Position numbers: made by a program. This document shows positions 27,001-33,000 of a DNA stretch of 64,000 bases, one piece after another. The stretch is from positions 1-64,000 of the forward strand of contig JAYOTF010000008.1 in the NCBI GenBank assembly GCA_038150265.1, in the 5' to 3' direction. The first letter of the stretch is position 1; every line of letters starts with the position of its first letter. This DNA is from Deltaproteobacteria bacterium. GTDB lineage: Bacteria > SAR324 > NAC60-12.

Positions 27001-30000
27001 TGGCTCGAGCCAGCTCTGGGAAGGATCGGTGGATCTCGCCAAGGGCTTCCCGGACCTGAGACCCCAGGATGACCTGCAGGAGCGTGGCCCCATACAGCAC
27101 CCAGCCAATGCGGCGCAGCTTCGCCTTGAGGGCGTCATCCAACTCGATGCGCCAGTGCTCTTCATTGGCAAGGAAGGTGATGTAGAGCAGCAGGCTCACC
27201 AGCAGCACGGCGCCAAACATGTGGGCCGTGATCATGCCCTGGTGCAGCTCCGAACGCACCACCAGCGCTCCCAGCCAGCCCTCAAATCCCACCAGCAGCA
27301 AGGACCCGAACGCCCCCCAGAAGATCGACGGACGTGTCTTCCGGTAGGCAAAAGATGCCACAAAGGTCGCGGTGATGAGCAGGCCGATGGTGACACCGAT
27401 CAGGCGGTTGATGTACTCGGTCCACATCTTGACCGGGTTGAACAGCGACAGGTCATAACGGGTCGCATCAATTTGGGAAACATCTGAAGGCGGCCACCAG
27501 CTTCCCCAGCAATGAGGCCAGTCCGGACACCCCAGTCCTGCCCCGGAGGCCCGAACCAGTCCCCCGACAAAGACCAGAAACAAGGTGGCCAAAACCGTGG
27601 CAATGGCCAATTTTTGAAACGCGTTCAACTCAGATGAGGTCTGCATGGAACGATCCTGAAAATTGGGAGAATAGGGTCCTCGAAAAAGGATTCCAAAAAT
27701 GAGCCGAATCACAAGCTTTATGCGGGTTTACGCCCGGGGAAGACCCCTGCTGGAGACCGGGAAAATGCGGGCGGAAAAGGCGGGCCGGCGCTGAGTTGCT
27801 CTTGCCGAAGAACGACGTCTCCTGAGGGCTCAACGTGGAAACCTGTTGCCGACACGGAGCGATGCTGCGATGCTACTCCCGGCGAAGGCGCTTCCATGGG
27901 GAAGGGCCGATACATTTCAGAACCTGCCGGATGTCAGCGTGGAAATCGCCTCCGGCTTACTTCCACAAGAGGTCTTGATGAGCAACCTACTGTTTTCTCT
28001 GCCAGAACCGCCTTCTGTTGCTGTGCAGGGCGAAACGCAGCGTTACCCGGTGTACCGCATTTTCTGCGTGGGACGCAACTACGCTGCCCATGCAGCGGAG
28101 ATGGGAGCCGAAGTGGACCGAGAGGCTCCGTTTTACTTCACCAAGTCGGCCAGAGCCATTGCTCACTCTGGCGACTCCGCCCCCTACCCTCCGGGCACGG
28201 AAAACTTCCACTATGAGCTGGAGCTGGTGGTGGCGCTGGGGAAGCCGGTTTTCCGGGCCAGTGTGGAAGAAGCCGCAACCGCGGTGTATGGCTACGCTTG
28301 TGGGCTGGACATGACGCGACGGGACCTGCAGATCAAGGAACGCAACAAGCAGCGCCCCTGGGACCTGGGCAAGGATGTGGAGCATTCGGCGGTCATGACG
28401 TCCATCACCAAGGCCGACGCGTTTGGCGCCATCGGTGATCAGCGCATCTGCCTGAAGGTGGGAGAGGAGATCAAGCAGGATGCGCGGCTGAGCGACCTCG
28501 TTTGGTCGGTCCCGGAGGTCATCAGCCACCTTTCCGGCTACTACCACCTCCAGCCCGGTGACCTGATCTACACCGGAACGCCCGCCGGCGTGGGCCCGGT
28601 TCAGCCGGGAGATGTCCTGCAGGGCACAATTGACGGCCTGGACCCGCTGCAGTTCACGATCACGGATCCGGAGTAGGCCCTGCGGCGGAGGTCACACGGA
28701 GGGACCCGCCTTGCCGGCTTCCACAAAGGCGAGGACGTTTTCGAAGGGAGAGCGTTCAAGCAGACCGTGGCTGAGGTTGAGGATGTGGTGGGTCCCTCCG
28801 CCGGCTTTCAGGCAGGCCTGGACGGCTGCTCGGACCTGTTCGGGAGTGCCATCTGCCAGGATGGTGTTGTCCACATTGCCCTGAAAGACCATCTCCGGCG
28901 CCTGCTGCTTCGCGGCCTCAAGGTCCACGCAGTGCCCCACGCTGAGCGCCTGGGCTCCGGATGCCAGCATCAGGTCGAGGTGTGGGCATTCCTTGGCAAA
29001 CAGCAGGGTCGGTCCCTGATCGGCAAGTGCCTGGAAGATGCGCTGGTGCGTCGGCAGGGCGAGGGCTTCATACAGCTCCCGAGGCAGCACATCGGCAAAT
29101 GACTCAAACAGCTGCACCGCCTGGGCTCCGGACTCCAGCTGATAGCGGAGGTAGTCGATGGTGAGGTCGGTGAGGGTGTCCAGGAGCGCCTGAGTGACCT
29201 CCGGCTCCTCGACCAGGAAGCGCAACACGGCTCCGGGGTCGCGGTTGGGGCTTCCGCCGGCAATGAGGAAGAACGCCAGGGTAACGGGGGCACCCGCAAA
29301 TCCAAGCACCGGCAGGGCGCCGTCCAGCCGGTGGTGCAGGCCCTGAAGGATCGCGCCAACATGCGGGAGGTCCCGGGCCGAGTTCAGGGGCCGGAGGGCT
29401 CGGACCTGCTCCAGCGTCCGGATGGGCGCCTCGAGCTGCGGACCCGGCCGGAAGTAAAAGGGCGCGCCGATGGGCGTCAGCGGGGTGAGGATGTCCTGAA
29501 ACATGATGATCGCATCAACCCCAAAACGCTGGGGCAGCAGCGAGATCTCAATGGAACGCTCGACATCGGCAAACAGCGCTTCAAGCGCCCGCCCATCCTC
29601 TGCCCGCAGACGACGGTACTCCGGATCGGTGCGTCCGGCCTGACGCATCATCCAAACGGGCACCCGAGGAACCGGCTGGCGCTGGAGGACACGGAGGATC
29701 AGGTCATTTTTCAGAGGGGGCGGTTGAAAGGGCATGAGGGCTTCTTCTGGTTGCAAGGGGGCCGTGGCCAGTCCGGTAACTGGCAGCCGGCAGAGGGAAT
29801 TTGACTGTTCACAGCGATTATCCTAAACCCATACGATCGACTTCAAAACCATTTTCTGAAGAGTTATGCCGCCTGCCACCCCGAATTGCCTCCGCTGTCA
29901 CGACTCCCACGTCTTTGTGCACACCGTCTCCGGCCAGCGTTACGCCCGGGCGCGTCTGTGTGACTGCACCCCCAAGCCGTGCCCCACCTGCGAGGGGTCC

Positions 30001-33000
30001 GGGTTTGTGCTGACGTACGATGAACAGGACCGGGAGACGGCGATGGCGTGTCCGGATTGCAGCCGCCTGAAGCGCCGCCTTGAGCTGTACAACGAGGCAC
30101 GCATCCCGAAACGGTACCTGCACAGTCGCCTTGACCCGCAGGATCAGGATGGAGAAAACTCGGCGGCCTTCGGATTGCTGGAAGTGACGCTCCGGAACCT
30201 GCCCCACCACCTGCAGCAAACCGAATCGCAGCAGGTGGAGCGAGACCTCAAGGGGCTGGTGCTGATGGGGCCTCCCGGAACCGGAAAGACGCACCTGATG
30301 GCCGGATTCACCTACCGCTGCACCGTGGAGCTGGGCATCTCCTGCGTGTTTCAGGGCTTCTCGGAACTGCTTCATGAACTCCGGCAGGGCTACAACAACA
30401 ACCAGTCCGACATGGAAATCATTGGCCCGCACCTGCAGGCGGATGTGCTGATCATTGACGACCTGGGGAAGGGCCGAAACAGCGACTGGGAGCTGAGCAT
30501 CCTGGATACCCTCATCTCGGAGCGCTACAACCGGGACCGGATGATCATGATCACCACCAACTACACGGAGCATGAGGAAAGCACCCTGCACGAGCGCGTC
30601 CTCAAGCGCGAGCGCAACGAGCCGGCGGCTCAATTCATGGCCGATACGCTCCGGACGCGTGTGGGCGAGCGCATTTACTCACGTCTGCGGGAGATGTGTT
30701 ACTTCGAGGAGCTGCTGGGACGGGACCGCCGACAGGCTGCTGAAACCGAGTCGCTGAGCGTTTGACATGACCCTTGAAGCCTGGCTCACTTACCTGGCTG
30801 CCACCACGGTGCTGCTGGCGATCCCCGGACCCACCATTTTGCTGGTCATCAGCTACTCGCTCGTCCGGGGCCGGGCCGCCACGCTGCCGCTGATCCTGGG
30901 CGTGACGCTGGGGGACCTGACCGCCATGACGGTCTCGTTTCTGGGGCTGGGGCTGCTGCTGCAAACGGCTGCAGTGCTGTTTCAGGGACTGAAGTGGATC
31001 GGGGCCGCTTACCTGGCCTACCTGGGCTTCCGGATGTGGCGGGAGCCGGTTGAGACGCTGGAAGACGCCGACGCCGAGGCCCTCCGGAAGTCTGGGCGAG
31101 AGATGCTCTGGCGCTCCTGGCTGACGACGGCGCTCAACCCCAAGGGCATCGTGTTCTTCCTGGCGTTTGTTCCGCAGTTCCTGGTTCCAGACCAGCCGTT
31201 TGTGCCTCAGGTCGTGGAACTGGGCGCCACCTTCCTCTTCCTCGCGGCTCTGAACGTGTTGGCCTACGCGCTCCTCGCCTCACGACTGAGCGGATTCATC
31301 CGCCGTCCACAGACCCGGACCTGGCTGAACCGCGCCGGCGGAGGCCTGCTGCTCGGGGCAAGCGCCGCGACGGCCGCCACCTGATTTCCCCAAAAAATTT
31401 TAACTGACGGGCCGGTCGAGGCTCCGGTACTGGATTGCTTCTGCAACATGGGTGGGGGTGACCCCGCCGCTGCCCTCGAGGTCGGCAATGGTCCGGGAGA
31501 CCTTGAGGATGCGGTCATACGCCCGGGCGCTCAGGCCCATGCGAGAGATGGCATTTTCCAGCAGTCCCTGTGCCTGCGCATCAAGAGGCACGAGGTCCTC
31601 CAGCTCCCGCCGTGTCATGGCCGCATTGGAGCGGGTGGGCGAGTTCCGGAAGCGTTCCTGCTGGCGCTGGCGGGCGGCCACCACCCGCTCCCGGATCTGT
31701 GCGCTGCTTTCACCGCGTCGCGTTTCAGCAAGGTGTGCGTACTCCACGGCTGGAACCGTTAGCTGCAGGTCAATGCGGTCCAGCAGAGGACCCGAAATGC
31801 GGGCCCGGTACTTCTGAACCTGTGGAAGCGGACACTGACAGTCGTGAGGACCGCTTCCGGGAGGGGTGCCGAAGTAGCCACAGGGGCATGGGTTCATTGA
31901 GGCCACCAGCATGAAGCTGCACGGAAATTCAAGCGTCATGGCGGCCCGGGCAATCGTGAGGCGCCGGTCTTCCAGAGGCTGCCGCAGCAACTCCAGAACC
32001 GTCCGAGGAAATTCCGGAAGCTCATCGAGAAAGAGGACCCCGTTGTGGGCCAGGGAGATCTCCCCCGGACCCGGAATGCTGCCTCCGCCCACCAGCCCTG
32101 CCTGCGAAATCGTGTGATGGGGACTCCGGAAGGGACGTTCGGCAAGGAGCGGCACCTCGGCCGGAAGCAATCCGGCAATGCTGTGAATCTTGGTGCACTC
32201 CAGTGCCTCGTCAAACTCCAGCGGAGGCAGGATGCTGCCCAGCCGTCGGGCGAGCATGGTCTTGCCAGAGCCCGGGGGGCCCAGCATCAACAGGTTGTGC
32301 CCTCCAGCGGCAGCGACTTCCATGGCCCGCTTGACGGCCTCCTGCCCCTTCACATCCTGAAGGTCCTCTGCTGAGGAGCGTTGATTCTGAAAGAGCGCCA
32401 GCGGGTCAATCGGTGACTCCGGAAAGTCGGCTTCTCCCCGGAAGAAGGCGAGCACATCAGCGAGCGACTGGACCGGAACCCGCCGCACTCCGGAAACCAC
32501 GGCGGCTTCGGCTTCATTGGCCGCGGGCAGAATGAGCTGATGCAGCCCCGCTTTTTGAGCCGCCAGCGCAATGGGGAGGATGCCCCGGATGGGACGCGTC
32601 TGGCCATCAAGCGCCAGCTCGCCGACCACCAGTGACTGCTGGAGCGCCTCTGGAGGAACCAACCCTGCTGCAGCCAGCAGCGCAACGGCAATGGGGAGGT
32701 CGAAGCCGGAGCCTATTTTTCGCAAATCTGCCGGAGCCAGGTTGACGACCATCTTCCGGACAGGAAGGGCGCAACCCGAGTTGCCGATTGCTGCAAGGAT
32801 GCGGTCTCGGCTTTCCCGGATGGTGCCATCGGGCAGGCCGACGATGGTGAACTGACTGAGGCCAATCGAGAGGTCCGCCTCGACTTCAATGAGGTGGGCT
32901 TCAATGCCGAGCACCGTTGCCGAGTAGGCCTTGGCAATCATGGAGACCGGAGGGGAGTGGGTTGAAAACAGTCCAGCGTGCAAACGCGGGTAAGTCGGCA

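Follow-up and report, generated by a model that had tools for sequence, protein, structure and literature searches.

The locus lies in a 64,000-nucleotide stretch of contig JAYOTF010000008.1 (assembly GCA_038150265.1) of a SAR324 bacterium, here called the window, and centers on a gene predicted to code for a resident ATPase of the DnaC type, with the following features:

29866..30765, + strand: predicted resident DnaC-type AAA+ ATPase gene (P0001), 299 aa
29866..30060, + strand: N-terminal module, residues 1-65, two 4-Cys beta-ribbons (C8/C11/C32/C34 and C39/C42/C62/C65)
30052..30120, + strand: helix 63-78 and LYNxAxIP linker, aligning with the pre-AAA+ helix and SGI motif of E. coli DnaC
30253..30732, + strand: AAA+ domain with Walker A K141, Walker B D198/D199, sensor I N232, arginine coupler R269, arginine finger R273, sensor II R289, and the ssDNA tetrad R174, Y177, S206 and W208
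28692..29756, - strand: hemE (uroporphyrinogen decarboxylase), family-conserved divergent neighbor of the ATPase gene; context only
30767..31384, + strand: LysE-type translocator, starting 1 base past the ATPase stop; context only

The eight cysteines, all within residues 8-65, are kept together in 23 of the 24 SAR324 rows of the alignment, and the ribbons that they form are presumably zinc-binding. The gene has a GC content of 62.4% (genome, 61.2%) and in SAR324 has no replication gene beside it. hemE occurs at 22 of 100 ATPase loci and an rpiB-like gene at 13, other neighbors differ, and the context is conserved within families only. Of the neighbors first named, hemE is present in the window and hemE with argC in relatives of the family; trxA was not seen at the scanned loci.

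By its Pfam name the protein would be an IstB: it matches PF01695 (IstB_IS21) at 52.1 bits for a cut of 24.1, and it shares both this family and its fold with IstB of IS21. Its motifs are nevertheless those of DnaC, the coupler and tetrad residues being identified from E. coli DnaC in the available part of PMC8213410. Among 111 family rows, Walker A and the arginine finger are present in all, sensors I and II in 110 each and the arginine coupler in 108; the second acid of Walker B is Glu in 94 and Asp in 17, and the tetrad positions hold K/R in 109, F/Y in 107, S/T in 90 and W/F/Y in 111. Three IstB controls, by contrast, have Ala at the coupler site and no aromatic residue at either aromatic tetrad site. 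The top four Foldseek matches are DnaC or DnaI, and the best solved match of a 43-row profile is Aquifex DnaC (4.8e-38, versus 1.8e-13 for IstB). The initial annotation, which had placed the family closest to Aquifex DnaC, was therefore right for solved structures, but by sequence the one-ribbon proteins of Acidobacteriota (181-206 bits) are slightly nearer than those of Aquificota (131-179 bits). Scores fall below the cut-offs of the E. coli DnaC equivalog NF005931 (47.6 bits, cut-off 357), the Bacillota DnaI equivalog NF006505 (47, cut-off 228), the IstB model NF038214 (61.9, cut-off 200) and the ZapE model NF040713 (34.9, cut-off 140); the AFG1/ZapE match stands at 27.1 bits for a cut of 27, those to DnaA and Hda are also weak, as are those to AAA-CI proteins of phages and plasmids (5e-6 to 1e-12, best among the matches listed). 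The nearest cluster bears the automatic Atlas name ZapE. A tree, missing until now, sets the family in one clade apart from IstB (SH 96, 92 and 97 in three trees, of the quick or FastTree type, in which other Aquificota proteins take the place of Aquifex DnaC itself). Membership in the DnaC class rather than in IstB is supported.

The ATPase was found in 82 of 88 SAR324 genomes, including 35 of the 35 good ones, with one strong copy each and an identity that falls from 94% to 31%, which bears out its earlier description as a single-copy core gene of the phylum with an eight-cysteine ATPase as product. Within SAR324 its phylogeny is congruent with that of DnaB (Mantel r 0.90 between distances; 14 of 21 splits common to both in 24 genomes), and dN/dS is 0.03-0.15 in five pairs; in the wider tree the SAR324 proteins are not resolved as a single clade. 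As previously claimed from fewer loci, neither a transposase nor IstA accompanies the gene: among 113 neighboring ORFs of 19 loci, some of them picked in the wrong frame where loci are GC-rich, there were no transposase, integrase or phage families and no IstA, and IstA was likewise missing among the four neighbors in the window. Searching IMG/VR with P0001 alone yielded no relative, and an IMG/VR scan for relatives of the ATPase gave 21 loci, all distant (at most 35% identity). The gene is thus inherited vertically, under purifying selection and without mobile neighbors.

The same marine phylum encodes DciA, the older of the two kinds of loader. Of the 88 genomes, 47 have a DciA above the Pfam threshold, as first counted, one of these (G035) owing its place to a 78-aa fragment that resembles contamination, although this genome has the long DciA as well. 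Outside the window genome's own family, the figure of 38 of 43 is corrected to 41 of 43. Pfam overlooked the protein in 36 of the 45 own-family genomes, where it is rebuilt to 350-400 aa with two DciA-like domains, and with an added model of this long form the total is 80 of 88. In G000, DciA matches PF05258 at 49.8 bits (cut 24) in an open frame. The position of dciA beside dnaB, noted earlier for G087, is not confined to that genome: across families f4-f7, dciA directly follows dnaB in 20 of 22 genomes. Long dciA has a dN/dS of 0.14-0.23 in the same five pairs as the ATPase; more broadly, 9 of 10 measurable pairs lie at 0.06-0.29, a single pair (40% identity) reaches 0.64, and three further pairs are saturated. 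ATPase and DciA occur together in 75 of the 88 genomes and 34 of the 35 good ones. In G065, a genome in one contig, the ATPase is present and DciA was not found. It is thus supported that, across the phylum, a resident ATPase coexists with a DciA that is intact and subject to purifying selection, as the initial annotation had proposed.

This bears on a published rule, which the initial annotation quoted exactly: none of 1,426 genomes contained both dciA and a resident dnaC/I, a pattern termed striking and of a cause called unknown there (PMC5109545). A structure paper of 2026 explains the exclusion, in its available part, by a shared binding site on DnaB (PMC13696075). The part of the PMC5109545 supplement that was at hand lists AAA-CI with dciA for 9 of 9 rows from Myxococcales and for 3 of 4 from Acidobacteria, entries that could be the ATPase family or IstB. 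In the literature searched, which left most subscription journals outside, no report of the family or of a resident coexistence with DciA was found.

Relatives outside SAR324 show how the two genes are distributed when both are not kept. The previous statement that four of five such carriers have DciA does not generalize: the proportion is 6 of 10 in one sample, 25 of 67 in the phylum of G093 and 0 of 61 in the Dadabacteria phylum, in which all 10 genomes sampled have the ATPase. Among 121 genomes of the Myxococcota-side phylum of G093, 25 have both genes, 42 only the ATPase, 53 only DciA and one neither, so that DciA is missing from 42 of 67 ATPase carriers versus 1 of 54 non-carriers; a second DciA model added none in these genomes. 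The genomes behind such counts are related rather than independent, and a diverged DciA can be overlooked. Along the ATPase tree the DciA state changes at least nine times; the phylum of G088 contributes only four genomes at 92% completeness. Exclusion of dciA and dnaC is therefore a tendency in the ATPase family, broken in SAR324 and in several other clades, and this near-complementarity in related phyla supports loader function independently.

A further gene accompanies the ATPase in the phylum of G093, where 66 of the 67 ATPase carriers (adjacent in 49) and none of the 54 non-carriers have a DnaD-like partner. Its N-domain resembles the DnaD domains 2i5u (Z 6.3, rmsd 2.6, 68 aligned) and 2zc2 (Z 5.7, rmsd 3.9, 70 aligned), matches that are tied with AAA lid domains; Pfam DnaB_2 matched one of 12 partners (E 0.0068, below cut), and Foldseek gave no match under E 0.001. 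A survey of 30 loci suggested that the partner, not the ATPase, excludes DciA, but in most genomes that keep DciA the partner is present though not linked, and 25 of the 66 genomes with ATPase and partner still have DciA. The partner was not found in the 88 SAR324 genomes (four had chance-level matches, E 0.018-0.042), in G000 by iterated local models (full and N-terminal), in G065, or in five sister-clade genomes, all five of which have DciA. Two Dadabacteria of 1.0 Mb yielded neither a partner within 1.5 kb nor DciA, and a local partner model found none in the 21 viral loci or in 11 annotated loci from phages, plasmids and E. coli.

Among known systems, DnaC of Aquificota (Aquifex aeolicus, PDB 3ecc/3ec2) is the best solved match by both profile (4.8e-38) and Foldseek (6.2e-12), has a Cys ribbon before the AAA+ domain, is a resident gene and includes members with an Asp-type Walker B. 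It groups with Acidobacteriota and the ATPase family at SH-aLRT 80, a sister relation that is weakly supported, yet homologs of both phyla have one 4-Cys ribbon rather than the two of SAR324, and dciA is absent from 9 of 9 Aquificae rows in the available supplement of PMC5109545. In E. coli DnaC, the five AAA+ motifs, arginine coupler and ssDNA tetrad all align with the ATPase, and primosomal dnaT lies directly upstream, comparable to the DnaD-like partner; on the other hand, identity is 25% over 154 residues, the clade is separate, a helical helicase-binding N-terminus stands in place of the Cys ribbons, and E. coli has lost dciA. Bacillus DnaI, which has a Cys-containing N-terminal domain besides its AAA+ domain, resembles the ATPase in this respect and works with the co-loaders DnaB/DnaD, as relatives of the ATPase are tied to a DnaD-like protein. 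The ATPase differs in its Cys pattern and in falling below the DnaI cut-off, and the partner is one protein of 100-250 aa, unlike the Bacillus DnaB/DnaD pair, and is not found in SAR324.

The most probable explanation, in which we have good but not full confidence, is that the ATPase is a chromosomally fixed, ATP-dependent DnaB loader of the DnaC/DnaI kind, stemming from an old initiator-loader module in which a DnaD-like gene preceded the ATPase gene. By analogy with E. coli DnaC, the ribbons and the following helix would bind DnaB, the AAA+ domains would oligomerize on the helicase ring, and ssDNA bound by the tetrad would trigger ATP hydrolysis and release of the helicase on DNA; counting against this reading, the ATPase does not have the N-terminal helix of E. 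coli DnaC. A predicted complex with a DnaB dimer fragment scored 0.59 versus 0.26 for the best control (contacts agreeing at 88% or more, partner pLDDT at least 76), which is weak support, and gave no interface. Of solved pairs, 18 of 157 had scores of at most 0.60, as had 2 of 215 mismatched pairs, and resemblance to the solved DnaB-DnaC structures may be all that the score reflects. At the determinant position of DnaB, 24 SAR324 helicases have neither Ser nor Gly, and this residue is uninformative here. DciA is often lost from genomes that have the full pair; in SAR324 the DnaD-like gene was apparently lost and DciA stayed. Because DciA and DnaC share a site on DnaB, DciA and the ATPase most likely alternate there. 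Should the ATPase be a loader, our preferred guess, at somewhat less than even chances, is that it loads at the origin and that DciA reloads at stalled forks, a job perhaps otherwise supported by the lost partner; this split of tasks is weakened by the two Dadabacteria and by G065.

A variant of the loader reading, sharing its probability and itself rather unlikely, joins both proteins in one SAR324 pathway: DciA, doubled in the most abundant marine family, would replace the lost DnaD-like protein as DNA-binding adaptor or co-loader, while the ATPase would open or release the ring. Groups in which the partner was not found do keep DciA (80 of 88 in SAR324, five of five in the sister clade) and the own-family protein is rebuilt with two domains, but DciA and DnaC both target the LH-DH module of DnaB according to the available part of PMC9912922, so that competition is expected, and G065 has the ATPase without any DciA found. 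Only slightly less probable is that DciA alone loads DnaB and that the ATPase is a domesticated DnaC-like ssDNA protein in repair, Hda-like control of DnaA or ZapE-like division; the weak AFG1/ZapE, DnaA and Hda matches, the Atlas name, and the lack of replication genes beside the ATPase gene in SAR324, whereas dciA follows dnaB in f4-f7, would fit, yet DciA loss almost confined to ATPase carriers (42/67 versus 1/54, with 0/61 in Dadabacteria) is left unexplained, and tetrad and coupler are conserved.

An improbable reading accepts the ATPase as true loader and takes SAR324 DciA as a leftover inactive on DnaB, which would leave the exclusion functionally intact. DciA does evolve more rapidly, has been rebuilt in the own family, was not found in G065 and includes the pair at 0.64; against this, it is kept in 80 of 88 genomes with open frames, low dN/dS in 9 of 10 pairs and a place behind dnaB in 20 of 22. 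Hardly credible is an IstB transposition helper or prophage remnant that breaks no rule: the Pfam name, the weak phage and plasmid AAA-CI matches and the 22 Vibrionaceae genomes in which a prophage dnaC accompanies dciA (PMC11087808, available part) speak for it, but the single copy, vertical inheritance, genome-like GC, separate clade, NF038214 score of 61.9/200, distant viral relatives, lack of mobile neighbors and of IstA, and presence of coupler and tetrad do not. The Vibrionaceae genomes hold both genes, as SAR324 does, but their dnaC is read in that source as prophage cargo, whereas the SAR324 ATPase is a phylum core gene.

Our verdict is an unreported domestication of a DnaC-type, putatively helicase-loading ATPase in SAR324, which breaks the exclusion of dciA and dnaC throughout the phylum. 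It stands outside the seven domestications listed in 2016 and, in relatives, comes with a partner that belongs to no named protein family. A whole phylum with both genes under purifying selection means that the two are compatible, and related clades, some with only DciA, some with only the ATPase and some with both, form a natural series on why DciA is lost. For Dadabacteria, in which DciA was not found, a probable loader is also named. If both proteins act in one pathway, the family would show every step of the change from DciA to DnaC, and a single old domestication shared with Aquificota and Acidobacteriota may lie behind it.

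The candidate helicase loader is a DnaC-type AAA+ ATPase, encoded between a divergent hemE and a gene for a LysE-type translocator:

29866-30765, + strand, ATPase of 299 aa

It carries eight cysteines within residues 8-65, followed by a PF01695 ATPase domain, and attains no NCBIfam equivalog cut-off. A search of all 88 SAR324 genomes recovered one strong copy in 82, including 35 of the 35 good ones, with identity falling from 94% to 31%, which bears out the initial annotation of a single-copy core gene; among the six genomes without it, five are 51-74% complete and one (G022) 87%. 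Elsewhere in the window, 33088-35682 on the - strand encodes a response-regulator-like protein of 864 aa, whose long acidic stretch contains three near-identical 13-aa repeats.

As first proposed, the ATPase lies nearer to Aquifex DnaC (4.8e-38, the top solved-structure match of a 43-row profile) than to IstB (1.8e-13); the same profile matches E. coli DnaC at 2.3e-23 and DnaI at 7.6e-23. The four highest Foldseek hits of its predicted structure (pLDDT 93) are DnaC and DnaI entries. Of the functional residues given in the available text of PMC8213410, those of Walker A, sensor I, the Arg finger and sensor II are conserved in 110-111 of 111 aligned family members and the arginine coupler in 108; the four positions of the ssDNA tetrad are conserved in 109, 107, 90 and 111. 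At the coupler position three IstB controls carry Ala, and they also lack both aromatic tetrad residues. Phylogenetic trees place the family in a single clade (support 96, 92, 97), which excludes IstB, phage loaders and E. coli DnaC. Its closest kin are one-ribbon proteins labelled Acidobacteriota (181-206 bits) and Aquificota (131-179 bits), the grouping with both having a support of just 80; because these relatives have one ribbon, the eight cysteines look like a doubled ribbon. We conclude that the ATPase resembles a DnaC-type loader in its likely working, yet stands outside the E. coli DnaC and Bacillus DnaI families. An AAA-CI protein on Leptospira noguchii plasmid NZ_CP091952 (L314) aligns all eight cysteines with both ribbons but falls outside the clade, and one Myxococcota-side genome has a second, long-branched eight-cysteine paralogue (L359, G193:C165).

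Pfam detected no transposase, integrase or phage families in 113 ORFs around 19 ATPase loci, some ORFs of GC-rich loci being in the wrong frame. Across 24 SAR324 genomes, ATPase and DnaB tree distances agree (Mantel r 0.90; 14 of 21 splits in common), the two genes coming from different species in one genus. The dN/dS of the ATPase is 0.03-0.15 (five pairs), its viral relatives are distant, and its best plasmid match is on an Aquificota plasmid (7e-25). The ATPase is thus resident and without mobile neighbours, as originally described, and that it belongs to a mobile element is hardly credible.

DciA, the older helicase loader, is matched by PF05258 in 51 of 88 SAR324 genomes, in 47 above the cut, and above it in 41 of 43 genomes outside the family of G000, the genome under study. 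Within that family DciA is 350-400 aa long with two DciA-like domains, and a dedicated model detects it in 39 of 45 genomes. The G000 copy, accompanied in the genome by dnaA, dnaB and priA, is:

G000:C14:1332-2384, - strand, long DciA (L066) with two DciA-like domains; a helical insert of ~50 aa lies in the first

Both models combined place DciA in 80 of 88 genomes: 75 have both genes, seven only the ATPase, five only DciA and one neither. Both occur in 34 of the 35 good genomes, so that the coexistence initially reported holds across SAR324; the exception, G065 (a single contig of 1.6 Mb), has no DciA by two models and retains the ATPase, dnaA, dnaB and priA. Likewise, the reported proximity of dciA to dnaB extends to 20 of 22 genomes of families f4-f7, where it immediately follows dnaB. 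Separate observations are a 290-aa frame with two DciA matches in G070, dnaA and dnaB on opposite strands ~1 kb or less apart in G039 (C1:1794691-1798037), and a 78-aa DciA fragment in G035 (L259, C3:134957-135145), dissimilar to SAR324 DciA, similar to the Bacteroidota type and probably contamination.

According to the available text of PMC5109545, none of seven dnaC/I domestications lies in these phyla and not one genome retained both dciA and resident dnaC/I, an exclusion restated in the portion consulted of PMC13696075 (2026). The accessible part of PMC11087808 lists 22 Vibrionaceae genomes with dnaC and dciA, the former interpreted as prophage-derived; a degree of overlap also follows from its AnnoTree totals, though that part does not discuss it. 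Coexistence goes unmentioned in the consulted sections of a 2022 DciA survey (10.1101/2022.01.24.477630). Our literature search, whose scope excluded subscription journals and preprint supplements, found neither this ATPase family nor resident coexistence described.

The family (1,181 clusters at 50% identity, E < 1e-30) does reach beyond SAR324, as had been claimed. In the Myxococcota-side phylum of G093, one strong copy occurs in 67 of 121 sampled genomes, and DciA in 25 of these 67 versus 53 of the 54 others; a diverged-DciA model (32 candidates scored per genome) yielded no additional DciA. At least one of the two genes is present in 120 of the 121, and the sole genome in which neither was found, G147, may be an incomplete assembly or rely on a different loader. 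DciA state switches nine times or more on the ATPase tree. In the Dadabacteria phylum, the ATPase is present in 10 of 10 sampled genomes and DciA in 0 of 61 searched. Although related genomes are non-independent, such complementarity is the pattern expected if the ATPase can replace DciA. Two streamlined 1.0-Mb Dadabacteria (G254, G265; L367, L372) have a shortened ATPase missing the first ribbon, with no DciA match and no DnaD-like partner gene within 1.5 kb.

That partner is a 100-250 aa ORF whose end lies no more than a few bases from the ATPase start in many loci outside SAR324, for example:

L131:4310-4978, unnamed DnaD-like partner (homologs A2, A3), preceding the ATPase gene in Dadabacteria and Myxococcota-side genomes

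In the phylum of G093 it accompanies the ATPase in 66 of 67 genomes (adjacent in 49) and occurs in 0 of the 54 without it. Its N-terminal domain resembles DnaD domains and is equally matched by AAA lid domains, similar Atlas clusters are most frequent in Acidobacteriota, and the gene just upstream in eight loci is one that we take to be gyrB. The gene order is that of E. coli dnaT-dnaC and of initiator-loader pairs in four phages. Genome searches did not find the partner in SAR324, nor in five sister-clade genomes, every one with DciA.

That the ATPase is a DnaC-type helicase loader appears likely. By analogy with E. coli DnaC, its ribbons and the following helix would bind DnaB, and ssDNA-triggered ATP hydrolysis would free it. 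A predicted complex with two copies of DnaB 150-445 lends weak support, scoring 0.59 against 0.26 for the best control (contact agreement 88% or more, partner pLDDT 76 or more). Scores up to 0.60 were attained by 18 of 157 solved pairs and by 2 of 215 mismatched ones, and resemblance to the solved DnaB-DnaC structures may account for the result. The accessible part of PMC8216460 is the source of the DnaB determinant residue. That the ATPase serves another process is quite unlikely. SAR324 DciA having ceased to act on DnaB is more doubtful still. Five long-form dciA pairs give dN/dS values of 0.14-0.23; among short-form pairs the value is 0.06-0.29 in four and 0.64 in one, three more being saturated.

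A single joint loading pathway for both proteins is unlikely. The LH-DH module of DnaB is a target common to DciA and DnaC (PMC9912922, section 3.2), and therefore SAR324 DciA and the ATPase probably take turns on DnaB. How they would share the task is a guess that we hold only tentatively: the ATPase, as the more constrained gene and one able to stand without detectable DciA, would load DnaB at the origin, and DciA would reload it at forks, given the role of Caulobacter DciA in maintaining forks (PMC9825169, available text).
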